From Alphaproteobacteria bacterium (lineage in GTDB: Bacteria > Pseudomonadota > Alphaproteobacteria > SP197), in the NCBI GenBank assembly GCA_965200215.1, contig OZ241369.1, positions 1,754-65,753 on the forward strand: 64,000 bases of DNA, read 5' to 3'. The notes below the pieces were generated by a model. It worked only from the letters and a program-made list of their open reading frames with translations. It did no database searches and was not told where the DNA came from. This document shows, piece after piece, positions 1 through 57,265 of this stretch. Positions within the stretch are counted from its first letter, which is position 1. The number at the start of each line of letters is the position of its first letter. The position numbers and the translations under genes were made by a program.

Positions 1-100
1 CGCCCCACCCCCACCGCCAGGCACCGCCGCCCACCACCCGCTCTCACTAACCACTAGCCACCGGCCACCGGCCACTAACCACCCCCCCCCCCCCCCGCCA
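1..100 (+). repeat. Dispersed intergenic repeat copy (C-rich tail, CCACT-type units) ending in a poly-C15 tract (82-96).
   Basis: CCACCGCCAGGCACCGCC...CCGCTCTCACTAACCACTAGCCAC motif shared with >25 other copies in the window; 15 consecutive C at 82-96. Confidence 0.7.
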
Positions 101-137
101 CACTTGCGCCGCCGCCCCCATGCCGCCTACAGTGGCC

Positions 138-236
138 ACCGGAAGGCTGGCCCGGACGGGCCGGCCCGTGAACCCGGTCAGGTCCGGAAGGAAGCAGCCG
201 TAGCGGGATGGGCCCGGGTCGAGCCGGTCTTCCGCA
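138..236 (+). ncRNA. ffs: Signal recognition particle RNA (4.5S, small SRP RNA).
   Basis: Contains the domain IV consensus GGUCAGGUCCGGAAGGAAGCAGCC (172-199). The 5' CGGAAG (140-145) can pair with the 3' CUUCCG (229-234). Sits in the classic position immediately upstream of dnaX. Ends approximate. Confidence 0.75.
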
Positions 237-244
237 TCGCAGCG

Positions 245-2023
245 ATGGCAGAACGGGCAGAGCAGGAACGGGGTCCGGCGGGCGGCGCTTCCGCCTATCG
301 CGTGCTGGCGCGCAAATACCGCCCCACCGCCCTGGACGGCCTGCGCGGCCAGGACGTGCTGGTGCGCACGCTGCGCAACGCCGTCGCCAGCGGCCGCATC
401 GCCCAGGCCTTTCTGCTGGCCGGCGTGCGCGGCGTCGGCAAGACCACCACCGCCCGCATCCTGGCCCGCATGTTGAACTGCGTCGGGCCGGACGCAGCCG
501 GCGGCGTCACGGCCGATCCCTGCGGCGTCTGCGAGCAATGCGCCGCCATCGCCGAAGACCGCCATGTCGACGTGCTGGAGATCGACGCGGCCAGCCATAC
601 CGGCATCGACAACATGCGCGAGCTGCTGGAGGCGGCCCGCTACCGTCCGGTGATGGGGCGCTACCGCATCTATGTCATGGACGAGGTCCACATGCTCTCC
701 AACGCCGCCTTCAACGCCCTGCTGAAGACGCTGGAGGAACCGCCCGAGCATCTGAAATTCGTCTTCGCCACCACCGAGCTGCGCAGGATTCCGGCCACCG
801 TGCTCTCGCGCTGCCAGCGTTTCGATCTGCGCCGCGTCGATGCCGGGGAGCTCGCCGGCTATTTCGCCGCCATCGTCGCCAGCGAGGGCGCCTCCTCGCC
901 GCCCGGCGCCCTGGCGCTGATCGCGCGGGCGGCCGATGGCTCGGTGCGCGACGGCCTCTCGATCCTCGACCAGGCGCTGGCCCGCGGGCGGGGCAGGCTC
1001 GACGAGGAGGATGTGCGCGAGATGCTGGGCCTCGCCGACCGCGGCCTCGTCTTCGACCTCTGCGAGGCGGTCATGGCCGGCGACGCCGCCGCCGCCCTCG
1101 CCAATCTGGAGGGGCAGTACGCCGCCGGCGTCGATCCGGCCGCCGTCCTGGAGGATCTGCTGGCCCTCGCCCACTGGCTCGCCCGCTACAAGGCGGCCCC
1201 GCGCGCCACCGCCCGCGACGCGCCTCAGTTCGAGCGCGAGCGGGGCGCCGCCATGGCCGGCAGGCTGGACATGCCGCAGCTGGTCCGCGCCTGGCAGCTG
1301 CTGCTGAAGGGCATGGAGGAGCTGCGCTGGGCGCCCGACGCGCGCCAGGCCGTCGAGATGACGCTGGTCCGCCTGGCCTACAGCGCCGGCCTGCCCACGC
1401 CTCGGGAGGCGCTGAAGGCGGCGCTCGGCCCCGCGCCCGCCACTCCGCTGCCGCAGGCGCCGCCGGCCCGGCAGGCGGCTGCCCGCCCGCCGCCGCCCGC
1501 GCCGGGACCACCGGCGTTGCCGCCCACGCCGGAGCCACCGCCGCCCGCGCCGGAATCATCGGAGCCGCCGTCCGCGCCGGAGCCGCCGCCGCCCGCCTGC
1601 CCGGCCTCGCCCCTGCCGCACAGCTTCGAGGCGCTGCTGGCGCTGGCCGAGCGGCGCCGCGCCGGCATCCTGCTCGCCCATCTCCGCAACCATGTCCATC
1701 TGGTTTCCTATGCGCCCGGCCGGCTGGCCTTCCGCCCCGGCCAGGGGGCGCCCGCCGGCCTCGACCGCGATCTCGCCACCGCCCTCGAGCGCTGGACCGG
1801 GCAGGCGTGGCAGGTGGAGGTCTCGTCCGACGAGGGCGGCGCCACGGTGGCCGACCGGGAGAGGGAGGCGCGCCGCCGCCGCCTGGACGCGGTGGCGGCC
1901 GAGGCGGACGTAGCGCGCATTCTGGACGGCCTTCCGGGTTCCGAGGTCGTGGCCGTCGACGACGCGCGCGGCGGCTCCCCGGAAGGGGCGCCGGGGGAGG
2001 GGGAGGGGGGGCGACAGCGATGA
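245..2023 (+). CDS. dnaX: DNA polymerase III subunits gamma/tau.
   Basis: Translation has YRVLARKYRP, the Walker A GVRGVGKTTTARILA and the clamp-loader motifs. ORF 104..2023, first ATG at 245. The start could instead lie slightly downstream near the ASAYRVLARKYRP region. Confidence 0.93.
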   Translation: MAERAEQERGPAGGASAYRVLARKYRPTALDGLRGQDVLVRTLRNAVASGRIAQAFLLAGVRGVGKTTTARILARMLNCVGPDAAGGVTADPCGVCEQCAAIAEDRHVDVLEIDAASHTGIDNMRELLEAARYRPVMGRYRIYVMDEVHMLSNAAFNALLKTLEEPPEHLKFVFATTELRRIPATVLSRCQRFDLRRVDAGELAGYFAAIVASEGASSPPGALALIARAADGSVRDGLSILDQALARGRGRLDEEDVREMLGLADRGLVFDLCEAVMAGDAAAALANLEGQYAAGVDPAAVLEDLLALAHWLARYKAAPRATARDAPQFERERGAAMAGRLDMPQLVRAWQLLLKGMEELRWAPDARQAVEMTLVRLAYSAGLPTPREALKAALGPAPATPLPQAPPARQAAARPPPPAPGPPALPPTPEPPPPAPESSEPPSAPEPPPPACPASPLPHSFEALLALAERRRAGILLAHLRNHVHLVSYAPGRLAFRPGQGAPAGLDRDLATALERWTGQAWQVEVSSDEGGATVADREREARRRRLDAVAAEADVARILDGLPGSEVVAVDDARGGSPEGAPGEGEGGRQR

Positions 2024-2376
2024 ATCTCGCGAAGATGATGAAACAGGCTCAGGAATTGCAGGCCAGGGTGGCGGCGCTGCAGGAGCAGCTGGCGGCCGCC
2101 GAGATCGAGGGCAGCGCCGGCGGCGGCATGGTCAGGGCGACGACCGACGGCAGGCACAGGCTCAAGCGCCTGGCCATCGACCCGTCGCTGCTCGTGCCCG
2201 CCGAGGCGGAGGTGCTGGAAGACCTGGTCTGCGCGGCCGTCAACGACGCCCGCACCAGGGCCGAGGAACACGCCAAACGGGAGACCGCGAAGCTCACCGG
2301 CGGCCTCGGCCTGCCGCCGGGCCTCCTCGTGGCGGCGGCCATGCTGTGCGGGCCTCACCTGCCGCTGCCGTTGTGA
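2020..2376 (+). CDS. ybaB: Nucleoid-associated protein YbaB/EbfC.
   Basis: [14 protein letters not shown]...[12 protein letters not shown] is the typical YbaB sequence. ATGA overlap with the dnaX stop. The C-terminal tail is atypical. Confidence 0.85.
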
Positions 2377-2380
2377 CGCC

Positions 2381-2977: not shown

Positions 2978-2994
2978 AGGGCGCCAAACCGTCC

Positions 2995-3144
2995 ATCCCC
3001 TATATCATCGCAAATCCCCCATTTCATGGAGGATTTACAAGTATTCTCCTTTGTATCATCGCAAATCAACCACTCCACCGATGGACTGCAAGCATAATCC
3101 CCCGTATCATCGCAAATCCCCCACCCCCCGGGAGATTTGCTGGC
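2995..3144 (+). promoter_or_regulatory. Three direct copies of TATCATCGCAAATC(C/A) spaced about 53 bp apart, in a lower-GC patch just upstream of the ATPase gene. Copies 1 and 3 are embedded in imperfect palindromes (GCAAATCC...GGATTT).
   Basis: Direct repeats at ~2999, ~3052 and ~3103. Local GC is clearly below the window average. The third copy abuts the ATG at 3145. Confidence 0.45.
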
Positions 3145-4317: not shown

Positions 4318-4319
4318 CG

Positions 4320-4595
4320 CCCCGGCCTGAAAAGCCTGCCGCTTGGCCCCCACACCCCAGGCGTCCCGCGCCCAGGCACCGCCGCCAGCGTCACGCCCCC
4401 GGCGGGCCGCCAGGCCCGCCCACGCACTATCCCGAGCGCCGGCGTCCCGCCGGCAACGGGCCGCAGGCCCGTCGACGCACCGCCCCAGGCCACCCGCTCT
4501 CACTAACCACTGGCCACCGACCACTAGCCACAGCGGCCAGCCCCGAAATCGCAACCGATACCCGGCCCCGAGGGTAGCCCCCCGCCGCGGACCGC
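4320..4595 (+). repeat. Dispersed intergenic repeat copy (core + CCACT tail), + orientation.
   Basis: Contains GAGCGCCGGCGTCCCGCCGGCAACGGGCCGCAGGCCCGTCGACGCACC followed by CCGCTCTCACTAACCACTGGCCAC. Confidence 0.8.
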
Positions 4596-5693: not shown

Positions 5694-5699
5694 GAGAAC

Positions 5700-6125
5700 C
5701 TCCCGGAAATGTGATTCTGCGACGCCCGCCATCATGCCGCAGCGCCCGCCACCATGCAAGCACGCCCGCCAGCCCAGAGCAAACACCCCCCACCGCCCTT
5801 TGGCACCGCCACCCGCACCCCAGGCCCCGACCAAGCGTCCCGCCGTCCGGCCCACCCACGCACCGACCGAGCGTCCCGTCCCCCAGGCACTATCGCCAGC
5901 GTCACGCCCCCCGGCGGGCCGAAAGGCCCGCCCACACACCATCCCGAGCGCCGGCGTCCCGCCGGCAAACGGGCCGCAAGGCCCGTCAACGCACCACCCC
6001 CCACCGCCAGGCACCGCCGCCAGGCACCACCGTCCACCCCCGCTCTCACTGGCTACCGGCCACTGGCTACTGGCCACTAGCCACCAACCACCACCCACTA
6101 ACCACCGCGCCGCCCCCCACGCCAG
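5700..6125 (+). repeat. Dispersed intergenic repeat, about two core units plus a long CCACT/GCCACT tail, + orientation.
   Basis: GGGCCGAAAGGCCCGCC and GGGCCGCAAGGCCCGTCAACGCACC cores, followed by CACTGGCTACCGGCCACTGGCTACTGGCCACTAGCCACC. Confidence 0.8.
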
Positions 6126-9544: not shown

Positions 9545-9765
9545 ACCCGCCGGGCACCGCCGCCAGCCACACGCCTCTGGAAGCGCCGAACCCCCACCGC
9601 CAGGCACCGCCCCCACCACCGGCGCCCCCCTGGGAGCGCCGGCGTCCCGCCGGCAAACGGGCCGCAGGCCCGTCGACGCACCACACGCCCGCCGCCAGGC
9701 ACCACCCCCACCACCGCTCTCACTAACCACTAACCACTGACCACCGGCCACCGGCCACTACCCCC
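9545..9765 (+). repeat. Dispersed intergenic repeat copy, + orientation.
   Basis: CCCTGGGAGCGCCGGCGTCCCGCCGGCAAACGGGCCGCAGGCCCGTCGACGCACC plus a CTCACTAACCACTAACCACTGACCACCGGCCAC tail. Confidence 0.8.
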
Positions 9766-10621: not shown

Positions 10622-10835
10622 CGCTGACTCACCGCCCGGCGGATAACACCCCCACCCCCCCCTGGCAACGCCCCCAGGCACCGCCGCCAGCCACACGCCC
10701 CCTGGGAGCGCCGGCGTCCCGCCGGCAACGGGCCGGAGGCCCGTCAACGCACCACCTGCCCACCGCCAGGCACCACCCCCACCCCCCGCTCTCACTAACC
10801 ACTAGCCACCGGCCACTGACCACCGGCCACCCACA
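10622..10835 (+). repeat. Dispersed intergenic repeat copy, + orientation.
   Basis: CCCTGGGAGCGCCGGCGTCCCGCCGGCAACGGGCCGGAGGCCCGTCAACGCACC plus CCGCTCTCACTAACCACTAGCCACCGGCCACTGACCAC. Confidence 0.8.
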
Positions 10836-10893
10836 CGCTTGGCCACCCGCCCCCCATACGCTAAGGTGGCGAACGAGACCGGCGGAAACCGTC

Positions 10894-11262
10894 ATGCCGA
10901 AGATCAACCCCCTCGTCACCCTGTTCCTCGCCATCGCGGCCATCAACGTCGGCCTGTTCGGCTGGCAGCGGGCCGACATGACCGCCCTGGAAACCCGCAT
11001 CGAGGCGCGCTTCGCCGCCCTGGAGATCCGCATCGAGGAACGCTTCAACCGCATCGAAGCCGGACAGACGGAGTTGCGCGAGCGCATGGCCCGCATCGAG
11101 GCCGGACAGACGGAGTTGCGCGAGCGCACGGCCCGCATCGAGGCCGGGCAGTCGGAGCTGCGCGAGCGCATGGCGCGCATCGAAGGCACGGTTGCCGGCG
11201 CCCTGGCCCGCCCCGACCGCCTGGCCCAGGCGCCCACCGAAGAAGCCGAAGCCGCCAACTGA
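10894..11262 (+). CDS. Small N-terminally membrane-anchored coiled-coil protein with tandem RIEAGQxELRER repeats. Paralog of 45751..46107.
   Basis: TM helix (VTLFLAIAAINVGLFGW) followed by three RIEAGQ(T/S)ELRER(M/T)A repeats. About 90% identical to the ORF at 45751. Shares an LRERMARIEG motif with the ORF at 22519. Confidence 0.6.
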   Translation: MPKINPLVTLFLAIAAINVGLFGWQRADMTALETRIEARFAALEIRIEERFNRIEAGQTELRERMARIEAGQTELRERTARIEAGQSELRERMARIEGTVAGALARPDRLAQAPTEEAEAAN

Positions 11263-11264: not shown

Positions 11265-11445
11265 GGCGCCCCCCCCAGGACCGACCGAGCGTCACGCCTC
11301 CTGGGAGCGCCGGCGTCCCGCCGGCAAACGGGCCGCAGGCCCGCCAACGCACCGTCCGCCCGCCGCCAGGCACCGCCTCTGCCACCGCCCCATGCCGGCG
11401 CTTCCAGGCCGCGGCTGGCGGCGAGAGTGTCGCCCCGGCGCGACC
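11265..11445 (+). repeat. Dispersed intergenic repeat copy, + orientation.
   Basis: CCTGGGAGCGCCGGCGTCCCGCCGGCAAACGGGCCGCAGGCCCGCCAACGCACC. Confidence 0.75.
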
Positions 11446-11759: not shown

Positions 11760-11989
11760 CGGTCACGACAGCTTGCCCCGTGGCAGCAGCGCAAGCAAGC
11801 CGAAAACAAGACCACTTCCCCCGCCACCCACCACCCGGTGCCCCTGGCACACTACCCGCCACACGCCCCCTGGGAGCGCCGGCGTCCCGCCGGCAACGGG
11901 CCGCAAGGCCCGCCAACGCACCACACGCCCGCCGCCAGGCACCACCACCATTCCCCGCTCTCACTAACCACTAGCCACTGGCTACTGGC
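11760..11989 (+). repeat. Dispersed intergenic repeat copy, + orientation.
   Basis: CCCTGGGAGCGCCGGCGTCCCGCCGGCAACGGGCCGCAAGGCCCGCCAACGCACC plus CTCACTAACCACTAGCCACTGGCTACTGGC. Confidence 0.75.
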
Positions 11990-14900
11990 TTACCAGCTCA
12001 TACGCAGTTCCAGGCCCAGTCCGTGGCTCACAGCGGGGTGTTCGCTGCGGGTGGCTTCGATCTTCAGGCCCAGGGCGGTGCCCAGCGCCAGGCGCTGGCC
12101 CAGGCTGTAGCGGCGCTCGTCGCCGCCCAGGGCCAGGCCGCCATAGGGCGTCAGCGTGCCGGCCTCGCCCCAGGCCGCCAGGCCGTAGCCCAACTCGCCC
12201 TCCAGGCGACCGCCGCCCTCGCCGCCGACGCCGTCGCGCGAGGCCATGCCTTCCTCCCACAGCCGCGCAAGCCCGCTGCCGGAAGCGCCCCAGGCCGGCG
12301 ACAGCGACAGCGACAGGCCGCGCCCGTCGCCGCCCGCGTCCATATGCAGGCTGCCGGACGCGCCCCATTCCTCCACATCGCTGCCATGCGCCACCAGGCT
12401 GCGACCCGATACCGACGCCGACAGCCCGGCCGCGGCGTCCGACCAGGCCAGCCCGCCGCCCAGTTCCACGCCCACGCCGGTGGCGCCGTCGCCATCGTCC
12501 CAGCGCAGACCCGCCTCCAGCGACGGCTCCAGCAGACGACCGCCCCGCAGCGCCCAGTTCCAGCTGCCCACCGTCGCCAGCCGCACCCGCCGCGTCGAGA
12601 CGCTCACCCCGGCAATCGCCTCGCCGTTGTCGGCCAGCACATAGCGGGTCGCCTCCGCAGAGGCACGCATCTCCACGGCGGAATCCCCGTCGCCATAGAC
12701 CGGCACCGCACCGCCCAACGCGCCGGCCACAAGCCGCCCGTCGCTCTCCTGCCACTCATAGCGGTCGAAGATGCCCGTGTCGGCGATCCGGACCTCGCCA
12801 TGGCCGTAGCCCAGCGCCGCCCACAGACGCTCGCCGCCGCCACCCGACCAGCCCAGATAGGGATGCACCGCCACCATCCGATGCTCGTGGTCGCCCTCGA
12901 TGGCCCCCGCGTCCTCGTCGCTGCGGTCCGTGTAGTCGATGGCGCTCTCGAAGCGCGAGACCGCCACGCCGCCCATGACGCCGCCGCCCAGGGCCACATC
13001 CGCCCCCACATGGGCGGAAAACAGCTTCCCGGACCACGACAGCAGGCCGTCCTCGCGCGACAGGTCGCGCCAGTCGCCGCCGCCCCACATCACCACCGCC
13101 GAGCCGCCGCCGCCGGAACCGTCCTCGCCCTCGCCGCCCAGGGCCAGCGCGAAGCTCTCGCCGCCCACCAGCTCGCGCCACGAACCCTCGCCGTCCTCCA
13201 GGGCCTCGCCCTTCGAGCGCAGAAAGTCCGCCGCAGCCGCAAGGCCCTGCTCCATCGCGCCGCCCCCCGAACCGCCGCCGCCGGGGGCTCCCAGGCGGGC
13301 GCCGATGGCGTCCAGCGCGCTGCCCCACATGGCACGCGACAACTCCGGCAGAACCGAGCGGTTCACCGCCGCCAGACGCTCGCGAGCCGCAGCCAGCGCC
13401 GGGACCACCTCGATGGTGAACTCCAGCGTCACAGGCTGGCCATCGACGTCGGTCGCCGTCCAGGTGTAGCGCGTGACCGCCATCTCCGCCGTCGGCGCCC
13501 CCGACAACCGATCACCACCCTCGTCGCACTCGAAGCCCTCGCACATGACACCGTCCGGAAGCGCCGGCGACAGCGCGTATATGAACGGCGCGTCGCCCGT
13601 CGCCGCCGGCAGCGTCTCCGGGGCGATCTCCTCGCCCACCGTCCAGGAAAGCGCCTCCGGGAAGTCCACCGCGAAGGACGGCGCCGTGTCCGCGTAGCCC
13701 ACCGCAAACGGCGAGAACGACATCACCCTGTCCGCGCACACCTGCGCGCCCTCGTCTCTCGATCCCTCCACCCGTTCCCCGCGACGCAACAGGAGCAGCG
13801 TCCGGCCCTTTGCCGCCTCGCGCACATCTGGGGTCACCGGCAGGCACAGCCGCAGGCCACCCGGCGGCACGGGAGAAACCGCGATATTCATCACCACCCG
13901 CGCCGCTGCCGGCCCCAGGCTGTGTTCGCTTCCCGCCGCCTCCGCCGCCCGGTCCTCAGGCCACGGCGAGAACGTCAGCGCCAGCTCCGGACCCGGCCCC
14001 ACACCCCTCAGATCGACCTCGATCCTCGTCGTCACCCCGGAGGCCACCGTCAACCCGGGGGCCACCGTCACCTTCACCAGCCGGTCCTCGACGCGGTAGC
14101 TCGTCGTGCCCGCATCGGCGGCCACCGCGATCCGGGTCGCCCCCGCCACCGACGCCGCGACATCCAGGCTCGCGGATACCCCTCCGTAATCGCCGCCCGA
14201 TGCCCGGTGCATCACCGACAGCGCCGCCGCGTAGCCGTCCGCCCCCACCGACGACCCCACCGTCACCGTCACCGCCTGCGCCCGGTTCCAATCCGCCATC
14301 GTGAAGGTCAGCGACGAAGGCGCGGCCCGCACATCGCCCGCCGCCGCGACCGTCACCGTCACCGGCCCCGTGGGCTGCGAGTTCAGCGCCACCGTGTAGC
14401 TCGCAGCTCGCGACCCCGACGCCACCTCCACCACGCTGGCGGTCGTGCCGGCGGCGAGGAACAGCAACCCCTTCTCGTCGTCGTCCACGATGGTCAGCTT
14501 CGCGTCGTCGTCGTCCACGTCCACGATCTCGTTGTTCATCGTGGCCTGGGCGTTCACCGCCGTCCCGGAGACCGTCACCGTCTTGTTATCCGCGTCCACG
14601 GCGTTGTTCACCGCCGTCACCGTCACCAGGCCGGTGCTGGTGGTCTCCCCCGCCGCGATGGTCAGCGTCGCCGCCGCGCTCAGCGTGAAGTCCCCCGCCA
14701 CCGCAGGGGCGACCGGCGCCGCCGTCACCGTCACCACCGTCTCCGCAACCGACGGGTGCTCCTTCACCGCCGTCACCGTCGCCACACCGCCATCCTCCGA
14801 GATCGAGGAAGGCGCCAGCGCCAGCGTCACCTCCGGCGGCTCGTCGTCGGTCGTGGTCCCGTTCACGTCCACGGGGTCGAGGCTGTCGTAGTCGGCATCG

Positions 14901-22141: not shown

Positions 22142-22149
22142 CCGCCCCC

Positions 22150-22515: not shown

Positions 22516-22518
22516 CCC

Positions 22519-42017: not shown

Positions 42018-43583
42018 TCATTCCGGCGCAGACAGCCAGAGGATCGGCCTCGGATTGTCGACGTACTGCCGCATCACGTGCCGCTTCTCCGCCCTCTGCT
42101 GCTCGAAGTTGGCCACATGCCAGCCGATCTGCGAGCGCTGCCACCAGGGAGCGCTCTCGGAGGCGCCATGCGCCTCCTGTTGCTCCAGCCAGCCCAGGAT
42201 GTTGTAGGACCAGGCGCCGACGAACTGCACCGCGACCGACCACAGCAGCGCCGCCCCGAACAGCGCCGCCACCCGCCGCCCGGCCATGACCCGTTCCATC
42301 GCCGGCAGCATCGACAGCGCCAGCAACGGCGCCGTATCGACGATCGACCGGTAGCCCCAGGCCGCCCCACCCCACCAATCGTACCACCGGGCGGCCACCA
42401 CGATCATCGCCAGAGCGGCGACCTGGAGCGGCACCAGAGGGCGCCAGCGCGCCTGCCTCCAGGCCAGCGCCATGCCCGCGAATCCGAACAGCAGCACCGG
42501 CGAATAGAACGCCAGGCCCCGTTGCGGGCTGACCAGCAGCCCCGGCAGGCTCTCCCACAGCGGCCCCGACCAGATGTCCCCGGACCCCGTGGTCAGGAGC
42601 GCGATGGCTCTCGACGCGATCGTCTGCCCGAACTCGAAGGGACTGCCGAACCACCAGGCGTTGTATGCGAACAGAACGACGGCGAAGGGCGCCCCGCCGG
42701 CGAGATAGGCGGGCAGGCGGCGCCGGTCCGCCCACAGCAGCCAGAGGCCCACGCACAGCGCCGCCAGGACGCTCGGAGGCCGGCACAGCACCGCCATCCC
42801 CAGCGCCGCCCCGCAACAGGCCCCGGGGCGCCGCCGTTCGGGAGAGGCGAGCAGGAAGAAGGCGCCCAGCGTCAGGAAGAAGGAGTTGGCCGGATGCTGC
42901 CACAGCGCCTGGCTGCTCACCGGCCAGGCGCAGCTTCCCAGCCCGAAGGCCAGGGCCACCAGCAGGGCCGGCAGGGGGGCGGCGAAGCGCCGCGCGGCCA
43001 GGAAGATCAGCAGCGCCGTGGCTGCGGTCAGCAGGGAGGCGGTCAGGGCGCCGCCATGCCACCACCAGTGGCGGTCGGCCTCGATGTCGGTGAACAGGTC
43101 GAGGGCGGCATAGACCGGCAGCCCGGTCAGCGCCGCCCCGATGCCGAAGGTGTTGACGAACACGCCCGGCTGCCTGCTTTCGACCACCCAGTAGCGCCCG
43201 GTTGGCACCAGCCGTCCCTGCTGGTACAGGGCGGCGGCCTCCCGGTTCCATTCGCTGACCCGGTTCCAGCTGTCGAGGATGGCGCCCTGCGCTTCCTCGC
43301 CGGCCTCTTCCAGCCTCCACCGGAAGGCGTCCGGCGCGTCCGCCGGCGTGAGCGAGAAGGAGTGCCGCTTCAGCAGGTTGACGCTGAACAGCATGTTGGC
43401 TTCCTGGTCGCCGCCGTAGAGAAAGTCGCCATTGCCCACATAGGCCCCGAAACAGGCCAGGAACAAAAGCGCGGGCAGAAGCATCCGCCGGCGGGGCTTC
43501 TCCACCGCCAGGCGCTGCGGCTTCGGCGCCGCAGCCCCGGGCCCAACCCGCCCCCGCACCTTTTTCCGGGCACTCCTCACCAC
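42018..43583 (-). CDS. Polytopic membrane protein, putative GT-C glycosyltransferase (ArnT/PMT-like); paralog A.
   Basis: 521 aa, more than 10 TM helices, N-terminal LLLPALLFLACFGAYVGNGDFLYGGDQEANMLFSVNLLKRHSF. GTG start. Near-identical core to paralog B. Family assignment is tentative. Confidence 0.6.
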   Translation of the reverse strand: MVRSARKKVRGRVGPGAAAPKPQRLAVEKPRRRMLLPALLFLACFGAYVGNGDFLYGGDQEANMLFSVNLLKRHSFSLTPADAPDAFRWRLEEAGEEAQGAILDSWNRVSEWNREAAALYQQGRLVPTGRYWVVESRQPGVFVNTFGIGAALTGLPVYAALDLFTDIEADRHWWWHGGALTASLLTAATALLIFLAARRFAAPLPALLVALAFGLGSCAWPVSSQALWQHPANSFFLTLGAFFLLASPERRRPGACCGAALGMAVLCRPPSVLAALCVGLWLLWADRRRLPAYLAGGAPFAVVLFAYNAWWFGSPFEFGQTIASRAIALLTTGSGDIWSGPLWESLPGLLVSPQRGLAFYSPVLLFGFAGMALAWRQARWRPLVPLQVAALAMIVVAARWYDWWGGAAWGYRSIVDTAPLLALSMLPAMERVMAGRRVAALFGAALLWSVAVQFVGAWSYNILGWLEQQEAHGASESAPWWQRSQIGWHVANFEQQRAEKRHVMRQYVDNPRPILWLSAPE

Positions 43584-43804
43584 CGCCTCCCCATCCCTCG
43601 CCAGTGTTTAGGTTCGAAAATGGGCAGGCACCGCTCGCCACCACCCCCAGGCACTGCCCAGGCAGCCCGCCCCCGGCGGGCCATCCGGCCCGTCAACGCA
43701 CCACACGCCCACCGCCAGGCACCACCACCAGCCATCCACTCTCACCGACCACTGGCCACTGGCCACCGACCACTAGCCACCGACCACTAGCCACTAACCC
43801 CCCA
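43584..43804 (+). repeat. Dispersed repeat with head hairpin (GGTTCGAAAATGGGCAGGCACCGCTCGCC), core and tail; + orientation.
   Basis: Head, core GGCGGGCCATCCGGCCCGTCAACGCACC, tail CCACTCTCACCGACCACTGGCCACTGGCCACCGACCACTAGCCACCGACCACTAGCCACTAACC. Confidence 0.78.
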
Positions 43805-45331
43805 TCATTCCCCCACAGACAGCCAGAGGATCGGCCCCGATTTGCCGGCATAGTCCCGCATGATCGCCTGCTTCAGCGCCCTCTGCGGCCCGAAATGGGC
43901 CACATGCCAGACGATCTGCGGGCGCGTCCACTGCCACAGGCTGGCCTTGTCCGGATCGTCGTGCTCCTGCCACTGTTTCATCCAGCCCACCTGGCTGTAG
44001 GACCAGGCGCCGACGAACTGCACCGCGACCGACCACAGCAGCGCCACCCCGAACAGCGCCGCCACCCGCCGCCCGGCCATGACCCGCTCCATCGCCGGCA
44101 GCATCGACAGCGCCAGCAGCGGCGCCGTATCGACGATCGACCGGTAGCCCCAGGCCGCACCGCCCCACCAGTCATACCACCGGGCGGCCACCACGATCAT
44201 CGCCAGGGCGGCGACCTGGAGCGGCACCAGAGGGCGCCAGCGCGCCTGCCTCCAGGCCAGCGCCATGCCCGCGAATCCGAACAGCAGCACCGGCGAATAG
44301 AACGCCAGCCCCCGTTGCGGGCTGAACAGCAGCCCCGGCAGGCTCTCCCACAGCGGCCCCGACCAGATGTCCCCGGACCCCGTCAGCGCCAGCGCGATGG
44401 CCCGCGACGATATTGTCTGCCCGAACTCGAAGGGGCTGCCGAACCACCAGGCGTTGTATGCGAACAGAACGACGGCGAAGGGCAGACCGCCGGCGAGATA
44501 GGCGGGCAGGCGGCGCCGGTCCGACCACAGCAGCCAGAGGCCCACGCACAGCGCCGCCAGGGCGCTCGGAGGCCGGCACAACACCGCCATCCCCAGCGCC
44601 GCCCCGCAATAGGCCCCATGGCGCCGCCGTTCGGGAGAGGCGAGCAGGAAGAAGGCGCCCAGCGTCAGGAAGAAGGAGTTGGCCGGATGCTGCCACAGCG
44701 CCTGGCTGCTCACCGGCCAGGCGCAGCTTCCCAGCCCGAACGCCAGGGCCACCAGCAGGGCCGGCAAGGGGGCGACGAAGCGCCGCGCGGCCAGGAAGAT
44801 CAGCAGCGCTGTGGCTGCGGTCAACAGGGAGGCGGTCAGGGCGCCGCCATGCCACCACCACCAGCGGTCGGCCTCGATGTCGGTGAACAGGTCGAGGGCG
44901 GCATAGACCGGCAGCCCGGTCAGCGCCGCCCCGATGCCGAAGGTGTTGACGAACACACCCGGCTGCGCGGTCGTGGCCAGATAATGGGCATAGGCGGTCG
45001 GCACCAGCCGCCCCTGCTCCCAGAGCGCGGCGTCGAAGGCGACGGCCCGCCCTTCCTCCGCCAGCTTCCAGTGGAAGGAGGCCGGCGCGTCCGCCAGGGT
45101 GAGCGAGAAGGAGTGCCGCTTCAGCAGGTTGACGCTGAACAGCATGTTGCCTTCCTGGTCGCTGCCGTAGAGGAAGTCGCCATTGCCCACATAGGCCCCG
45201 AAACAGGCCAGGAACAAAAGCGCGGGCAGGAGCATCCGCCGGCGGGGCTTCTCCACCGCCCGGCGCTGCGGCCCGGGCGGTGCCTGCCCAGCCCGCCCCC
45301 GCACCCTTTTTCGGGCACTTCTCACCACCAC
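43805..45331 (-). CDS. Polytopic membrane protein, putative GT-C glycosyltransferase; paralog B (tandem duplicate of 42018..43583).
   Basis: About 85% identical to paralog A over the TM core, with divergent N-proximal loop and C-terminal tail. Probable GTG start near 45325-45331 (VVVRSARKRVRG). Confidence 0.6.
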   Translation of the reverse strand: MVVRSARKRVRGRAGQAPPGPQRRAVEKPRRRMLLPALLFLACFGAYVGNGDFLYGSDQEGNMLFSVNLLKRHSFSLTLADAPASFHWKLAEEGRAVAFDAALWEQGRLVPTAYAHYLATTAQPGVFVNTFGIGAALTGLPVYAALDLFTDIEADRWWWWHGGALTASLLTAATALLIFLAARRFVAPLPALLVALAFGLGSCAWPVSSQALWQHPANSFFLTLGAFFLLASPERRRHGAYCGAALGMAVLCRPPSALAALCVGLWLLWSDRRRLPAYLAGGLPFAVVLFAYNAWWFGSPFEFGQTISSRAIALALTGSGDIWSGPLWESLPGLLFSPQRGLAFYSPVLLFGFAGMALAWRQARWRPLVPLQVAALAMIVVAARWYDWWGGAAWGYRSIVDTAPLLALSMLPAMERVMAGRRVAALFGVALLWSVAVQFVGAWSYSQVGWMKQWQEHDDPDKASLWQWTRPQIVWHVAHFGPQRALKQAIMRDYAGKSGPILWLSVGE

Positions 45332-45359
45332 CGCCTCCCGGGAGCCGACCCGATCGCAT

Positions 45360-45700
45360 GATAGCCGGGAAGCCTGAAGCCGGGCAGCCCGCCCCCGGCG
45401 GGCCATCCGGCCCGCCCATACACCATCCCCCCGAGCGCCGGCGTCCCGCCGGCAACGGGCCGAAGGCCCGCCAACGCACCGCCCCCACCGCCAGGCGCCA
45501 TCCCCCATTTCCCGCTCTCACTGACTACCAGCCACTGGCCACTGGTCACAAGCCAGAGCCCCGCCGGCAAACGGGCCGAAGGCCCGCCAACGCACCACCC
45601 CCCACCGCCAGGCACCACACCCCACCACCCGCTCTCACTAACCACTAGCCACTAGCCACTGGCACCACCGCCTGCCACTCACAGCCCCGCCACGCTTGGC
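45360..45700 (+). repeat. Dispersed repeat, two or three core units plus tail, + orientation.
   Basis: GGCGGGCCATCCGGCCCGCC, GAGCGCCGGCGTCCCGCCGGCAACGGGCCGAAGGCCCGCCAACGCACC and GCCGGCAAACGGGCCGAAGGCCCGCCAACGCACC, tail CCGCTCTCACTAACCACTAGCCACTAGCCACTGGC. Confidence 0.8.
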
Positions 45701-45750
45701 CACCCGCGCCCCATGCGCTAAGGTAGCGAACGAGACCGGCGGAAACCGCC

Positions 45751-46107
45751 ATGCCGAAGATCAACCCCTTCATCACCCTGTTCTTCGCCATCGCAGCCAT
45801 GAACGTCGTCTTGTTCGGCTGGCAGCGTGCCGACATGACCGCCCTGGAAGCGCGCTTTGCCGCCCTGGAAACTCGCATCGAGGAACGCTTCAACCGCATC
45901 GAAGCCGGACAGGTGGAGCTGCGCGAGCGCATGGTCCGCATCGAAGCCGGACAGACGGAGTTGCGCCAGCGCACGGCCCGCATCGAGGCCGGTCAGGCGG
46001 AGTTGCGCGAGCGCATGGCGCGCATCGAAGGCACGGTCGCCGGCGCCCTGGCCCGCCCCGACCGCCTCGCCCAGGCGCCCACCGAAGAAGCCGAAGCCGC
46101 CAACTGA
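45751..46107 (+). CDS. Small N-terminally membrane-anchored coiled-coil protein with RIEAGQxELR repeats (paralog of 10894..11262).
   Basis: MPKINPFITLFFAIAAMNVVLFGWQRADMTALE...RIEAGQVELRERMVRIEAGQTELRQRTARIEAGQAELRERMARIEGTVAGALARPDRLAQAPTEEAEAAN. Also shares 40 bp of upstream sequence with the 10894 copy. Confidence 0.6.
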   Translation: MPKINPFITLFFAIAAMNVVLFGWQRADMTALEARFAALETRIEERFNRIEAGQVELRERMVRIEAGQTELRQRTARIEAGQAELRERMARIEGTVAGALARPDRLAQAPTEEAEAAN

Positions 46108-46398
46108 AGGGCGCCCCCAGTACCGACCGAGCGTCCCGCCCCCCGGCGGGCCGCCAGGCCCGCCCACACACCGTTCCCCGAGCGCCGGCGTCCCGCCGGC
46201 AAACGGGCCGGAGGCCCGCCAACGCACCACTCGCCACCGCCAGGCACCACTCCCCACCACCCGCTCTCACCGACCACTGGCCACTGGCCACCAGTCAGAG
46301 CGCCGGCGTCCCGCCGGCAACGGGCCGAAGGCCCGTCAACGCACCGCCCCCACCACCAGGCACCATCGCCATTCCCCGCTCTCACTAGCCACTAACCA
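46108..46398 (+). repeat. Dispersed repeat, three core units plus tail, + orientation; the IS is inserted into its tail.
   Basis: GGCGGGCCGCCAGGCCCGCCCACACACC, GAGCGCCGGCGTCCCGCCGGCAAACGGGCCGGAGGCCCGCCAACGCACC and GAGCGCCGGCGTCCCGCCGGCAACGGGCCGAAGGCCCGTCAACGCACC, tail CCGCTCTCACTAGCCACTAACCACTAG. Confidence 0.8.
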
Positions 46399-46399
46399 C

Positions 46400-47251
46400 T
46401 AGGCTCAGGACCCATAAACGGTCTTGAGTATTGTTGTGAGAAGTGGTTCAAGCTCTTCCAGATATAGAGGAGGCTATCATGTCTGACCACCACTTCTGGT
46501 TATCGGATGCCCAGTTCGCCCGCATCCAGCCGCTGTTGCCCAACAAGGTGCGCGGTGTGCCCCGGGTCGATGACCGGCGCGTCATCTCGGGCATCATCCA
46601 CGTCATTCGCAACGGGCTGAGGTGGCGTGACGCGCCGCCTGAATACGGTCCTCACAAGACCCTCTACAACCGCTTCGTGCGCTGGAGCAGGGCTGGCGTA
46701 TTCGGACGCATCTTCGAGGCTCTGGCTGCCGACAGCCGGGCGTCGGGGACGGTGATGATCGACGCCACCTACCTGAAGGCTCACCGGACTGCGGCCAGCC
46801 TGCTCAAAAAGGGGCTTTTCCGCGATGTATCGGGCGTAGCCGAGGCGGCTTGAACTCGAAGCTGCACGCGGTTTGCGACGGCGATGGCAAGCCCTTGATC
46901 CTGCTGCTGACCGAGGGGCAGGCCAGCGACTACCGGGGTGCCGAGGCCATCTTGCCGGCAGTGCCGGACGCCGATGTCCTGATCGCCGACAAGGGCTATG
47001 ACAGCGACCGTTTCCGCCAAGCCCTGGCCGAACGGCGCATCGAGACATGCATCCCCGGACGGGCGAACCGCAAGAGGCCGGTAGAATATGACCCAAAGCT
47101 ATACCAGCGGCGAAACCTCATCGAACGGATGTTCGGAAGGCTCAAGGACTGGAGGCGCATCGCCACACGATACGACCGATGCGCGCACACCTTCTTTAGC
47201 GCTATCTGCATCGCCGCCACCGTCATCTTCTGGTTATGAGTCCTGAGCCTA
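46400..47251 (+). mobile_element. IS5-family (IS427-group) insertion sequence, about 850 bp. Terminal inverted repeats GGCTCAGGAC(C/T)CATAA. Transposase in two ORFs (orfA 46479..46853, orfB 46850..47239) joined by a probable -1 frameshift at CAAAAAG (46805-46811). Inserted at a CTAG site with a TA duplication.
   Basis: Left end ...CTAGGCTCAGGACCCATAAACGG. Right end CCGTTTATGAGTCCTGAGCCTAG (rc matches the left end). orfA MSDHHFWLSDAQFARIQPLLP... has the HTH. orfB ...GGLNSKLHAVCDGDGKPL...ADKGYDS has the DDE motifs. Lower GC than the flanks. Confidence 0.85.
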
Positions 47252-51599: not shown

Positions 51600-51860
51600 G
51601 CAAGGGGGTTAAAACGGCAGCAGCGCCCCGGCTCGAACACGGCCAGGCACCGCCGGTGCCACAGGCCCCGGCGGGCTGAAAGGCCCGCCCCCGCACGAAA
51701 TTCCCCCAAGCGCCAGCGTCCCACCGCCAGGCACCGACCGAGCGTCCCGTCCCCTGGGAGCGCCGGCGTCCCGCCGGCAAACGGGCCGTAAGGCCCGCCA
51801 ACGCACCACCCCTCACCGCCAGGCACCACACCCCACCACCCGCTCTCACCAACCACCAGC
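51600..51860 (+). repeat. Dispersed repeat with degenerate head, two cores and tail; + orientation.
   Basis: GGCTCGAACACGGCCAGGCACCGCC... GGCGGGCTGAAAGGCCCGCC... CCCTGGGAGCGCCGGCGTCCCGCCGGCAAACGGGCCGTAAGGCCCGCCAACGCACC, tail CCGCTCTCACCAACCACCAGCCACC. Confidence 0.78.
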
Positions 51861-51956
51861 CACCGCCCACAACGCCAACCGATCCACCACCAACCTGCTA
51901 CGATAAACGGGCACCAAAACCCGCTGCGGCACCCCGCCGCGCGAAAGGAGTCGGCG

Positions 51957-52993
51957 ATGGCGGCACCGGCGATGGCCGACTGGAACACGGAAGCATTCTG
52001 GAAAACCGCCACGGAGGCGGACGTCTCGCGCTGCCTGGCGGACGGCGCCGACCCGAAGGCGCGAGCCGAGGACGGGATGACACCCCTGCACCATGCGGCG
52101 GCGGGTAGCGCGGCTCCGGCTGTGGTGACGGCGTTGCTTGATGCCGGCGCCGGCCTGGAAGCGCGGGACGAAGGCCGACGGACACCTCTGTACCGGGCGG
52201 CGGCGTTCAGCAAGGCCCCGCTGGTGGTAGTGGCGCTGCTGGACGCCGGCGCCGATCTGGAAGCGCGGGACGAAGTCGGGGGGACACCCCTGCATGTGGC
52301 GGCAGCGCTCAGCAAGGTCCCGGCGGTGGTAGTGGCGCTGCTGGGCGCTGGCGCCGATCTGGAAGCGCGGAGCGGAGGCGGGCTGACACCCTTGCATGTG
52401 GCGGCGGCGCTCAGCAAGGTCCCGGCGGTGGTAGTGACGCTGCTGGGAGCTGGCGCCGATCTGGAAGCGCGGACCGAAGGTGGACAGACACCTCTGCACC
52501 GGGCGGCGGCGTTCAGCAAGGTCCCGGCGGTGGTAGTGGGGTTGCTGGACGCCGGCGCCGATCTGGAAGCGCGGGACGAGGACGGGGCGACGCCCTTGCA
52601 CTATGCAGCGGGGTGGAACAAGACCCCGGCGGTGGCGACGGCGTTGCTGGATGCCGGTGCCGACCCGGCGGCACGGACCGAAGGCGGGCGGACGCCCCTG
52701 CATATAGCGGCGACGTTCAGCAAGACCCCGGTGGTAGTGACGGCGTTGCTGGCCGCTGGCGCCGATCTGGAAGCGCGGGATGAATACGGATGGACGCCTC
52801 TGCATGTGGCGGCGGTGGGCAGCGAGGCCCCCCCTCGGCGGTGGTGACGGCGCTGCTGGCTGCCGGCGCTAACCCGGCGGCGAGAGACGCGGACGGCTGC
52901 ATCCCCTGGGATCTCATCGAGGACGACTCTCCGCTCAAGGGAAGCGACGTCTATCGGCAGTTGAAAGACGCCCGCTTCCAGCGGCGGCGGTGA
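51957..52993 (+). CDS. Ankyrin-repeat protein (8-9 ANK repeats) interrupted by a -1 frameshift in a C7 homopolymer at 52829-52835. A C8 tract would restore a 345-aa ORF.
   Basis: Repeats of the type G(x)TPLH(x)AAxxSKxPAVVVALLxAGADLEARD. Frame 1 stops at 52847 (..GSEAPPRRW*). Frame -1 (52790..52993) continues the ANK consensus (SAVVTALLAAGANPAARDADGCIPWD...). Confidence 0.75.
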
Positions 52994-53084: not shown

Positions 53085-53290
53085 CCTCGGTTTGAAAATG
53101 GGCAGGTGCCGTTTGCCGCTACTTCCCAGGCGTCCCGCCTCCAGGCACCGACCGAGCGTCCCGCCCCCTGGGAGCGCCGGCGTCCCGCCGGCAAACGGGC
53201 CGAAGGCCCGCCGACACACCGCCCCCACCGCCGGGCACTGCCGCCATTTCCCGCTCTCACTAACCACTGACCACTGACCGAAGCGCCGGC
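53085..53290 (+). repeat. Dispersed repeat (head hairpin + core + tail), + orientation; left boundary of BrnTA cassette copy 1.
   Basis: CGGTTTGAAAATGGGCAGGTGCCGTTTGCC head, GGGAGCGCCGGCGTCCCGCCGGCAAACGGGCCGAAGGCCCGCCGACACACC core, CCGCTCTCACTAACCACTGACCACTGACC tail. Confidence 0.8.
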
Positions 53291-53342: not shown

Positions 53343-53600
53343 TCACACAGTGCCGTTTCTCCCGATCCACTCCCGAAGCGCCTCGTCGATCCGCGTCTGC
53401 CAGCCGTGACCTCCGGCCTTGAAGTGATCGATCACGTCCCGCGACAGGCGGATCGTCGTCGATACCTTCGGTTTGGCGACCGGCGGCCGGCCGCGCCGAA
53501 CAGCCGTCTTGGCGAACTTTTCCGGCCAACCGTCTTCGGAAAGGTCAGGCGCGGTGTCCCGATCGAAATCTCGGGCCATAGAGCGTTCGTTCCCGTTCAT
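53343..53600 (-). CDS. brnA: BrnA-family antitoxin (copy 1).
   Basis: RRGRPPVAKPKVSTTIRLSRDVIDHFKAGGHGWQTRIDEALREWI is the BrnA signature (RHH-like). Confidence 0.75.
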   Translation of the reverse strand: MNGNERSMARDFDRDTAPDLSEDGWPEKFAKTAVRRGRPPVAKPKVSTTIRLSRDVIDHFKAGGHGWQTRIDEALREWIGRNGTV

Positions 53601-53833
53601 TGGCTTTCCTCACACTAATGATCCGATGCGCACCGTCGCGCGGTGTCCAGACCAGGACCACCATCGCGCCGTCGAGAAACCCCACGGTGATGAAGCGGTC
53701 CTCAACCATAGTCCCGCCGGTCGTCCTCGATGGTCAGCGTGGCACCCGCGAACACCTCCCCAGCCCGGGCCATATCCAGCCCCCTGACCCTGAGCGTGGC
53801 CGCGCGCTTCGCCGCGTCAAACTCAATCGGCAT
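53545..53833 (-). pseudogene. brnT: BrnT-family (DUF497) toxin gene with a +1 frameshift (extra T in GGT[T]GAG at ~53702); copy 1.
   Basis: N-terminal ORF MPIEFDAAKRAATLRVRGLDMARAGEVFAGATLTIEDDRRDYG* (ends 53702). The BrnT C-terminus continues in the +1 frame: EDRFITVGFLDGAMVVLVWTPRDGAHRIISVRKANERE.... The identical lesion is present in copy 2. Confidence 0.6.
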
Positions 53834-53919
53834 GATTAATGTTACAACACTAAATCTGCTTGTCCAAGAGATTCCTCATTCCCCGGCTAAGGCCGGAAAG
53901 TCAGGGCTTCCTGGGTAGT

Positions 53920-54060
53920 GCCTCGGTTTGAAAATGGGCGGATGGTGTTTGCCACCCCCGGGGCAGGCCGCCCCCGGGAGCGCCGGCGTCCCGCCGGAAA
54001 ACGGGCCGCAAGGCCCGTCAACGCACCACCCGCCCACCGCCAGGCGATCGAGCGGCCGGA
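53920..54060 (+). repeat. Dispersed repeat (head hairpin + core), + orientation; right boundary of BrnTA cassette copy 1.
   Basis: CGGTTTGAAAATGGGCGGATGGTGTTTGCCACC plus CCCGGGAGCGCCGGCGTCCCGCCGGAAAACGGGCCGCAAGGCCCGTCAACGCACC. Confidence 0.78.
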
Positions 54061-54084
54061 GGCATCGCCGGCGGCCATCGGGGG

Positions 54085-54546: not shown

Positions 54547-54566
54547 GGCCCGTGCCGACTCCGGCG

Positions 54567-56238: not shown

Positions 56239-56284
56239 GGGCCGAAACTAAGGCATGGCCCGCCCACCCGCAAGTGGGCAGTGC

Positions 56285-56460
56285 CCCGGTTTGAAAATGG
56301 GTAGGCGCCATTCACCGCCATCCCCAGGCGCCCCCCTGGGAGCGCCGGCGTCCCGCCGGCAAACGGGCCAAAGGCCCGTCAACGCACTGCCCCCACCGCC
56401 AGGCACTACCGCCATTTTCCCGCTCTCACTAACCACTAACCACTGACCAAAGCGCCGGCG
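56285..56460 (+). repeat. Dispersed repeat (head hairpin + core + tail), + orientation; left boundary of BrnTA cassette copy 2.
   Basis: CGGTTTGAAAATGGGTAGGCGCCATTCACCGCC, GGGAGCGCCGGCGTCCCGCCGGCAAACGGGCCAAAGGCCCGTCAACGCAC, CCGCTCTCACTAACCACTAACCACTGACC. Confidence 0.8.
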
Positions 56461-56511
56461 CGCGAGAGGCGGCGTAGAAAAACATTGTGATTCTTCGCTC
56501 CCGTGCGGCGG

Positions 56512-56769
56512 TCACAAAGTGCCGTTTCTCCCGATCCACTCCCGAAGCGCCTCGTCGATCCGCGTCTGCCAGCCGTGACCTCCGGCCTTGAAGTGATCGA
56601 TCACGTCCCGCGACAGGCGGATCGTCGTCGATACCTTCGGTTTGGCGACCGGCGGCCGGCCGCGCCGAACAGCCGTCTTGGCGAACTTTTCCGGCCAACC
56701 GTCTTCGGAAAGGTCAGGTGCGGTGTCCCGATCGAAATCTCGGGCCATAGAGCGGTCGTTCCCGTTCAT
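56512..56769 (-). CDS. brnA: BrnA-family antitoxin (copy 2; 1 aa different from copy 1).
   Basis: Same sequence as 53343..53600 apart from E5D. Confidence 0.75.
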   Translation of the reverse strand: MNGNDRSMARDFDRDTAPDLSEDGWPEKFAKTAVRRGRPPVAKPKVSTTIRLSRDVIDHFKAGGHGWQTRIDEALREWIGRNGTL

Positions 56770-57002
56770 TGGCTTTCCTCATGCTGATGATCCGATGCGC
56801 GCCGTCGCGCGGTGTCCAGACCAGGACCACCATCGCGCCGTCGAGAAACCCCACGGTGATGAGGCGGTCCTCAACCATAGTCCCGCCGGTCGTCCTCGAT
56901 GGTCAGCGTGGCACCCGCGAACACCTCCCCAGCCCGGGCCATATCCAGCCCCCTGACCCTGAGCGTGGCCGCGCGCTTCGCCGCGTCAAACTCAATCGGC
57001 AT
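56714..57002 (-). pseudogene. brnT: BrnT-family toxin gene with the same +1 frameshift (copy 2).
   Basis: Identical TATGGTTGAGGACCGC junction to copy 1; N-terminal 43-aa ORF then the BrnT C-terminus in the +1 frame. Confidence 0.6.
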
Positions 57003-57089
57003 GATTAATGTTACAACACTAAATCTGCTTGTCCAAGAGATTCCTCATTCCCCGGCTAAGGCCGGAAAGTCAGGGCTTCCTGGGTAGTG

Positions 57090-57265
57090 CCTCGGTTTGA
57101 AGATGGGCAGGCGCCATTCACCGCCATCCCCAGGCGCCCCCCTGGGAGCGTCGGCGTCCCGCCGGCAAACGGGCCGCAAGGCCCGCCAACGCACCACACG
57201 CCCACCGCCAGGCACCATCCCCACCCCCGCTCCCACCGACCACTGGCCACTAACCACTATCCACC
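57090..57265 (+). repeat. Full-length dispersed repeat (head hairpin + core + tail), + orientation; right boundary of BrnTA cassette copy 2.
   Basis: CGGTTTGAAGATGGGCAGGCGCCATTCACCGCCATCCCCAGGCGCCCCCCTGGGAGCGTCGGCGTCCCGCCGGCAAACGGGCCGCAAGGCCCGCCAACGCACCACACGCCCACCGCCAGGCACCATCCCCACCCCCGCTCCCACCGACCACTGGCCACTAACCACTATCC. Confidence 0.85.

Follow-up and report, generated by a model that had tools for sequence, protein, structure and literature searches.

Repetitive extragenic palindromic (REP) sequences, such as those of Escherichia coli and the GTAG-1 family of Pseudomonas, are built on a short G+C hairpin that follows a conserved tetranucleotide and GA, with GTAG-1 reading GTAG-GA-GCGAGC-TT-GCTCGC. 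Here we describe a repeat family with the same plan in a 64,000-nt stretch of DNA from an alphaproteobacterium (contig OZ241369.1, positions 1,754 to 65,753; hereafter the window), which has a G+C content of ~71% and is part of a 2,763,832-bp contig (a chromosome of 2.76 Mb). Published GTAG-1 REPs lie beside gene 3' ends, to which they donate stop codons, and rarely form head-to-tail dimers (PMC3733652). The copies in the window share with REPs, and with the inverted REP doublets known as REPINs, their high copy number, their intergenic position near gene 3' ends and the occasional supply of a stop codon (PMC3733652), but the head-to-tail arrangement that is rare in published families is the rule here. 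The tag is CTGG rather than the canonical GTAG (or CGTC), and a heptamer microsatellite tail has been added. The arms of the window are all co-oriented singlets: profile searches of both strands found no inverted REP arm and no inverted doublet, only a 3' arm reduced to a vestigial CGCTCYCA, and the unit is therefore not a REPIN. In other phyla the identical arm does form inverted doublets and flanks Y1_Tnp genes; REPs of this kind are probably copied by dedicated enzymes acting on single-stranded DNA, the REP-associated tyrosine transposases (RAYTs).

Bacterial interspersed mosaic elements (BIMEs) of enterobacteria are likewise modular mosaics that join REP hairpins to other motifs in a variable number of units per site, but BIMEs alternate the orientation of their REPs, whereas the orientation here is uniform and the accessory modules are unrelated, which places the family outside BIMEs proper. 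Mycobacterial interspersed repetitive units (MIRUs) are polar intergenic short tandem repeats that overlap the stop and start codons of flanking genes, and the short tandemly repeated repetitive (STRR) sequences of cyanobacteria are intergenic tandem heptamers. Both resemble the present family as intergenic tandem short repeats of unrelated sequence, and differ from it in that the heptamer array of the window is only the tail of a REP-derived unit whose orientation does not follow transcription. The attC sites of integrons, including arrays of Vibrio cholerae repeats (VCRs), are also co-oriented imperfect palindromes around small cassettes, toxin-antitoxin genes among them, but the elements described here are spread among housekeeping genes, no integrase was seen among the open reading frames scanned and attC core sites are lacking, so that the likeness is organisational only. 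In the IS200/IS605 insertion sequences (IS608, ISDra2), Y1 enzymes of the HUH class recognise subterminal hairpins on one strand, and copies are orientation-biased with the direction of replication (PMC3971601, PMC6006769); the element of the window differs in its size of ~100-170 nt, contains no transposase and does not have IS-type ends. We class the family as an asymmetric, polar variant of elements of the REP/BIME type.

The repeat family and its polarity

Three module profiles, one each for the head, the core (comprising arm A and hairpin B) and the tail, were searched with nhmmer on both strands with filters off. At E<0.01, ~33 cores, ~33 tails and 6 heads matched, all on the + strand, and the minus strand of the window held no module match with E<0.6, leaving no reversed copy among ~70. 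A 28-nt core motif gave 21 matches at ≤3 mismatches, 21 of 21 on the + strand, where shuffled sequences gave an expectation of 0. Merging the modules resulted in 28 composite elements spanning positions 11-57263, each of which rests on these profiles. They are listed below, where GT22 stands for a Glyco_transf_22-type membrane glycosyltransferase and HTH for helix-turn-helix.

11-74, +: tail; the window begins within the element; heptamer array at 44-78, then poly-C at 82-96
4434-4530, +: core and tail, with a variant hairpin module upstream at 4384-4429; convergent
5893-6077, +: two cores and tail; heptamer array of 9 units at 6046-6108
9628-9750, +: complete core-tail unit; flanked by truA (+) and dapD (-), with the stop codon of dapD adjoining the array
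10699-10822, +: complete core-tail unit; divergent
11299-11353, +: core alone; convergent
11868-11989, +: complete core-tail unit; the giant gene (11990-22129, -) ends at its array
22227-22282, +: core
22384-22507, +: complete core-tail unit
23180-23244, +: tail
23668-23732, +: tail; in sister strains an identical tail brackets an inserted 903-bp HigB/HTH cassette
24882-25010, +: core and tail; sister strains L116 and L118 are without the core, the indel being bounded by CCCACCGCC
29161-29535, +: array core-core-tail-core-tail-core, upstream of yidC
30397-30564, +: head, core and tail; rpmH/GST divergent region
31302-31646, +: array tail-core-core-tail-core-tail
34169-34244, +: tail with 6-unit array; convergent
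36067-36167, +: core and tail between GT22 paralogs
37925-38049, +: complete core-tail unit
39876-39993, +: core and tail; stop codon of a GT22 gene within the array
41831-41954, +: complete core-tail unit, then a 12-unit array to 42007
43611-43793, +: head, variant hairpin and tail
45433-45663, +: core-tail-core-tail
46180-46404, +: core-tail-core-tail; co-directional plus
51752-51869, +: complete core-tail unit
53088-53278, +: head, core and tail, left of BrnTA copy 1
53972-54028, +: core, with a weak head at 53924; right of BrnTA copy 1
56287-56449, +: head, core and tail, left of BrnTA copy 2
57093-57263, +: head, core and tail, right of BrnTA copy 2; last element of the window

On a gene map drawn from codon-position G+C, Pfam and the gene tables of sister-strain contigs, these elements occupy 27 intergenic regions, the number that the original prediction had given as a minimum, and the mapping of modules bears out its description of a modular, REP/MITE-like family. 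Five of the regions are convergent, 4 divergent, 15 co-directional on the minus strand and 2 co-directional on the plus strand, with 1 of unknown context. Because the same + orientation is seen in convergent, divergent and both co-directional contexts, the orientation of the elements is independent of the flanking genes, as had been claimed, and does not follow local gene direction. With ~22 independent sites, after discounting the tandemly duplicated GT22 spacers, uniform orientation has p ~5e-7. The repeat family and its strict polarity are real.

Most genes have an element directly behind their 3' end, and the neighbours of the elements are mostly unrelated housekeeping genes (ffs/dnaX, def-fmt-truA/dapD, rpmH-rnpA-yidD-yidC-engB-argB and fumC). 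Left of 57.3 kb, only ~2 intergenic gaps longer than 80 nt lack an element; between 57.3 and 64 kb of the window, and in the next ~7 kb of sister strain L124, there is none. Cores and tails are also found singly or in arrays of up to 6 modules.

The complete unit measures ~97 nt, with a constant span of 91-94 nt. Its 5' part reads CCC-CTGG-GA-GCGCCGGCG-TCC-CGCCGGC-AA(A)C-GGGCC-loop-GGCCC-G(T/C)CAACGCACC; after CAACGCACC come ~35 C-rich nt that include CACCGCCAGGCACC, then CGCTC(T/C)CAC and finally (CCACYRR)n. The core REP is the 25-nt segment CTGG-GA-GCGCCGGCG-TCC-CGCCGGC, in which the tag and GA are followed by a G+C hairpin of 7-9 bp with a TCC loop. Folding predicts an outer stem of 8 bp in which CTGGGAGCG would pair with CGCTCYCA to enclose hairpins A and B. 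A G.T wobble on the + strand, which would read as an A.C mismatch on the minus strand, is seen in this stem in 10 of the 14 distinct units. In hairpin B (GGGCC-loop-GGCCC) the stem is kept while the loop varies (GCAA, GTAA, GAA, GCA, GCCA, GGA), often taking a GNRA form on the + strand (GCAA, GTAA). The head hairpin varies in a compensatory manner, with AAATGG/CCATT in the window against AAACGGC/GCCGTTT in L140. The stems hardly differ among the young copies, and only the outer-stem wobble and the head-hairpin variants are informative about covariation.

Two details of the anatomy first described for the family needed revision. The optional head hairpin exists but is rare, and only 2 of its 6 copies fit the earlier consensus at ≤3 mismatches; the tail microsatellite is present, but its unit is the heptamer (CCACYRR)n rather than CCACT/TAACCAC. 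There are 20 such heptamer arrays of 3-12 units each, none of them reversed, of which 6 place stop codons in all six frames, and 8 minus-strand genes terminate in or beside an array. At the end of the first tail stands a poly-C tract of 15 nt (82-96), just upstream of the signal recognition particle (SRP) RNA gene (141-236). Rfam found no family on the repeats even at E≤10, the SRP RNA (RF00169, 62 bits) alone reaching its gathering score.

Sister strains that are 93-99% identical (ENA ERZ25070167 and others) share the region and its orientation. Differences between them consist of indels of modules, with short direct repeats such as CCCACCGCC at the boundaries, and of the 903-bp HigB/HTH cassette between identical tails. 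The two BrnT/BrnA cassettes of the window (53343-53900 and 56512-57001, both on the minus strand) are each bracketed by head-core-tail elements; a premature stop splits the BrnT gene at ~56.77-57.0 kb, and does so likewise in L131. Look-ups with BrnA, and with one paralog of a small-protein family, led back to this same region. A second, unlinked region of 20 kb on a 126-kb contig (L140-L142), reached via paralogs of a multi-copy small protein, contains 31 forward module matches against 1 inverted partial tail (L140:675-755), which adjoins a forward element in the trmFO/dcd divergent spacer. The complete uniformity of orientation originally reported thus stands for the 57 kb of the window but does not extend to the whole species. 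Most genes of the second region lie on the C-rich-side strand of the repeats, whereas most coding bases of the window lie on the opposite strand, and the polarity is therefore independent of transcription.

In a sister species (ERZ26050812) with a circular 2.82-Mb genome and ~84% nucleotide identity (range 82-88%), 42 kb were searched, of which 20 kb lie at 1.27 Mb and 22 kb are syntenic with window positions 47-64 kb, and no element was found. The expansion is therefore recent, or else the sister species has lost its elements. Recent import by recombination as an explanation of the repeat-free stretch right of 57.3 kb was rejected, since identity is similar on both sides (82-88%). Spacers of the sister species hold C-rich stretches (L143 4449-4680, syntenic with the window, and L138 9563-10000), for example CCACCCGCCAGGCAACC...CCTCCTGGACGCGCC, which look like decayed tail/core modules.

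The core REP in other phyla

In length (20-40 nt in REPs), imperfectly palindromic form, copy number and position the core agrees with REPs, being a hairpin (GCGCCGGCG-TCC-CGCCGGC) present in ~33 copies in 57 kb, all of them intergenic. The exact 21-mer of arm A occurs in more than 115 contigs, often with several contigs per metagenome-assembled genome, and its hosts, among the matches listed, include Acidobacteriota/Thermoanaerobaculia, Verrucomicrobiota, Planctomycetota, Alpha- and Gammaproteobacteria and others. Across other genomes (133 copies) conservation spans exactly 25 nt, CTGG plus GAGCGCCGGCGTCCCGCCGGC, and collapses on either side; base counts at the four tag positions in these copies are C 95, T 86, G 97 and G 132. 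Published REP families allow GYRG/GTGG variants of the tag, CTGG not being among these (PMC3733652). Downstream of 67 of 135 copies, at a distance of 2-143 nt, stands an inverted partner, GCCGGCG(G/A)GACGCCGGCGCTCCC; this is the layout of a REPIN or dumbbell, and upstream partners (6) and tandem copies (7) are rare among the 135. The head and tail modules are confined to the lineage of the window. A tail-specific pattern gave 0 matches in a metagenome scan, repeat-derived peptides used as protein queries also gave 0, and a literature search found no match to the repeat sequence or its encoded peptides. The arm 21-mer also occurs once in each of 6 IMG/VR viral or prophage contigs (L132-L137), a possible route between phyla.

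RAYT genes were sought by tblastn with RAYT/IS200 sequences and then with the resulting matches as queries. Y1-type genes lie near arms in 4 loci from four different phyla or classes: with arms on both sides in Thermoanaerobaculia (L080), flanked by arms in Gammaproteobacteria (L039), adjacent to an arm in Verrucomicrobia (L024) and 2 kb from an arm in Alphaproteobacteria (L085). Pfam confirmed Y1_Tnp (PF01797) for 3 of the 3 genes tested. These 4 Y1 neighbours, among 115 loci of 8 kb chosen by the 21-mer only, far exceed the ~0.2 expected by chance for a single-copy gene. At E≤1e-20 the Y1 family comprises at least 4,901 sequences, and JGI names many of these 'REP element-mobilizing transposase RayT'. 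Judged by sequence, the core belongs to the RAYT-associated class of REPs, with a striking cross-phylum sequence identity. The REP/MITE-like label of the original prediction holds, although that reading had missed both the cross-phylum REP core and the link to RAYT transposases. A REP arm identical over 21-25 nt from Acidobacteriota to Proteobacteria points either to a very tight protein-DNA constraint or to horizontal movement of RAYT and REP.

Proposed replication-coupled spread and its alternatives

We propose that the family is a lineage-specific, recently expanded mosaic of REP/BIME type, the copies of which were made and inserted as single-stranded DNA (ssDNA) at replication forks, an account to which we give an even chance of being correct. 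In other phyla the REP arms usually form inverted doublets (REPINs) and flank single genes for RAYTs, which are Y1 HUH ssDNA transposases. In the species of the window the mobile unit has turned asymmetric, comprising the REP arm, hairpin B, a C-rich spacer of ~45 nt, the vestigial 3' arm CGCTCYCA and (CCACYRR)n, in which CGCTCYCA is predicted to close the 8-bp outer stem with CTGGGAGCG, the array is prone to slippage and a head hairpin sometimes stands in front. With such an asymmetric unit, strand specificity in its spread can be seen. If ssDNA copies enter at forks and the tagged strand is that of the lagging-strand template, in the manner of IS200/IS608, all copies of one replichore would come to point in the same direction, and the arrays may later expand and contract as modules recombine or slip. 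For Y1 transposases the substrate is ssDNA at the lagging-strand template, and copies of the IS200 family are orientation-biased with fork direction (PMC6006769, PMC3971601). We infer a RAYT-driven, replication-coupled mechanism of this kind for the present genome and consider it plausible.

A link to replication direction had been among the explanations first offered for the polarity, and it is favoured by the co-orientation of the elements with GGGNAGGG, an E. coli-type FtsK-orienting polar sequence (KOPS) motif that is distributed 13:2 in favour of the + strand, within spacers as well as within genes of either strand. Other GGGNNGGG octamers are distributed 30:141, the opposite direction to GGGNAGGG (Fisher p=8e-8), and the strand counts of GGGNAGGG elsewhere are 7:0 in L124 and 2:0 in L140. 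The KOPS convention is established for gamma-proteobacteria. If it holds here, + is the leading strand, and the CTGG-tagged strand would lie on the lagging-strand template. Raw GC skew is negative on the + strand of the window, which the KOPS-like polarity of GGGNAGGG contradicts. The giant adhesin-like gene and the GT22 paralogs dominate the window and differ in third-position skew, and GC3 skew (at third codon positions) amounts to -0.157 for genes on the + strand and to +0.082 for housekeeping genes on the minus strand; raw GC skew was rejected as a marker of replication or of the leading strand because it is confounded by gene content.

Several observations weigh against fork-coupled insertion. 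Reading + as the leading strand depends on an E. coli-type convention that is assumed for this taxon, and raw GC skew, though confounded, points the other way. The tag is CTGG rather than the canonical GTAG. A search of ~410 kb of the window's lineage revealed no RAYT gene, and none of the top 120 RAYT homologs lies on a large contig of that lineage. The elements stop abruptly at 57.3 kb and are missing from the following ~21 kb, which a purely replichore-wide process does not predict, and the strain indels at short direct repeats fit recombination or slippage as well as or better than transposition.

Module-level indels between short direct repeats and a patchy distribution, dense to 57.3 kb and then empty, are what a regional founder effect would leave, in which a few copies multiplied within the region through unequal recombination, gene conversion, slippage and segmental duplication, processes that all preserve orientation, with no link to replication or to a transposase; 5 of the spacers lie within the tandemly duplicated GT22 array, and toxin-antitoxin cassettes are bracketed by identical elements. 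However, unrelated housekeeping genes (ffs/dnaX, def-fmt-truA/dapD, rpmH-rnpA-yidC, argB, fumC) stand on both sides of the elements and independent insertions are therefore required, on a second, unlinked contig the polarity is again near-total and the elements are again co-oriented with GGGNAGGG, and the core is a RAYT-type REP, so that we regard such an origin as unlikely. Selection for an RNA of one sense appears to us quite improbable. The + sense, in which two stable hairpins precede a long C-rich, G-poor tract rich in YC dinucleotides, might serve as a rut site for Rho loading or as a polar terminator, and in the minus sense the hairpins might protect the 3' ends of upstream mRNAs; published REPs, mostly located downstream of genes, are believed to function as RNA (PMC3733652), and the position of the present elements, right behind the 3' ends of most genes and with 8 minus-strand genes ending in or beside a heptamer array, is in keeping with this. 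The tails in the + sense, with 53% C, 16% G and 28 YC dinucleotides per 100 nt, are rut-like, which is only suggestive, the loops of hairpin B are often GNRA on the + strand, and G.U pairing in the outer stem is available in the + sense only. Against this, the same orientation recurs where promoters diverge and in the co-directional contexts of both strands; most elements are therefore read in the G-rich sense, if they are read at all. In the 28-47.5 kb stretch scanned, the elements carry no intrinsic-terminator-like sites and no terminator-like U-tracts. Folding z-scores of the elements are modest (-0.3 to -2.1), and a role in RNA leaves both the absence from the sister species and the rapid turnover of modules unexplained.

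The G-rich strand might itself be a signal of chromosome polarity that selection holds on one replication strand, whether Chi-like (GGTGGTGG resembles GNTGGTGG), KOPS-like or a G-quadruplex (G4), given that the tails carry GGTGGTGG and GGCGGTGG on the minus strand and that G-rich octamers are strongly minus-biased. We give this very little weight. The candidate KOPS GGGNAGGG points the opposite way (13:2 on +), and a Chi-like role of GGTGGTGG is disfavoured because it stands on the opposite strand to that motif; under the usual convention the G-rich strand of the tails would be the lagging strand, opposite to Chi in E. coli. The suggestion that the minus strand of the tail could form a G-quadruplex found little in its favour, with the canonical G3N1-7 motif in just 4 of 28 elements and 19 of 28 qualifying only when loops are relaxed to 12 nt, and a short signal needs no hairpin mosaic of 100-170 nt. 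It is also highly unlikely that the elements are recombination sites of a cassette system resembling integron attC/VCR arrays. BrnTA, HigB/HTH and small coiled-coil genes are indeed bracketed by co-oriented elements and vary between strains, but the same elements flank core housekeeping genes and operons, no integron integrase is present among the window's open reading frames (ORFs) scanned, and the core fits a RAYT-type REP rather than attC. Readings of the family as a clustered regularly interspaced short palindromic repeat (CRISPR) array or an integron were rejected on anatomy and context.

The interest of replication-coupled spread lies in the fact that REP multiplication has so far been inferred rather than observed, and that symmetric REPINs hide their strand of origin; an asymmetric, apparently very recent and almost perfectly polar unit gives a direct test of how REPs spread. 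Should the orientation flip at ori and dif, REP spread would be coupled to the replication fork, like that of IS200/IS608. The bolder claim, that the asymmetric REP is the first genome-scale footprint of fork-coupled RAYT mobilisation and that its 25-nt arm is identical across phyla along with a RAYT clade, we advance tentatively and with some doubt. If true, either the fork-coupled footprint or the cross-phylum arm would call into question the strictly lineage-private, vertical inheritance ascribed to REP-RAYT systems. For the annotation of these high-G+C genomes, it matters that the elements supply stop codons, create long spurious ORFs and drive the gain and loss of cassettes among strains.

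Other features of the window

The giant gene at 11990-22129 (-) consists of ~3,380 codons of ~340-nt tandem repeats, and its homolog in L116 gives faint LapA/Calx-beta matches. The strand opposite this gene is also open, with a shadow ORF of 3,608 codons at 12023-22849 (+). At 34256-45508 (-) lie the 6 tandem GT22 paralogs, with one repeat element per spacer; their copy number and content vary between strains, and L116 has phage-type integrases at that position. Three direct copies of TATCATCGCAAATC at 2978-3144, possibly operator- or iteron-like, stand upstream of a DUF4143/AAA_14 ATPase gene, in one of the few spacers without a repeat element.

An ankyrin-repeat protein is encoded at 51957-52847 (+) by 102-nt tandem DNA repeats, and the length of this gene varies, giving 168, 236 and 369 aa in L124, L125 and L131, respectively. 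Two 89%-identical copies of a multi-copy family of coiled-coil membrane proteins of 80-140 aa are found at 10832-11262 and 45690-46107 (both +). The family, which is also present in L140-L142, has a conserved leader, ...GCTAAGGTGGCGAACGAGACCGGCGGAAACCG, and more than 100 relatives, apparently restricted to a genus-level group, and its genes cluster with CCDC90-like small genes and autotransporters.

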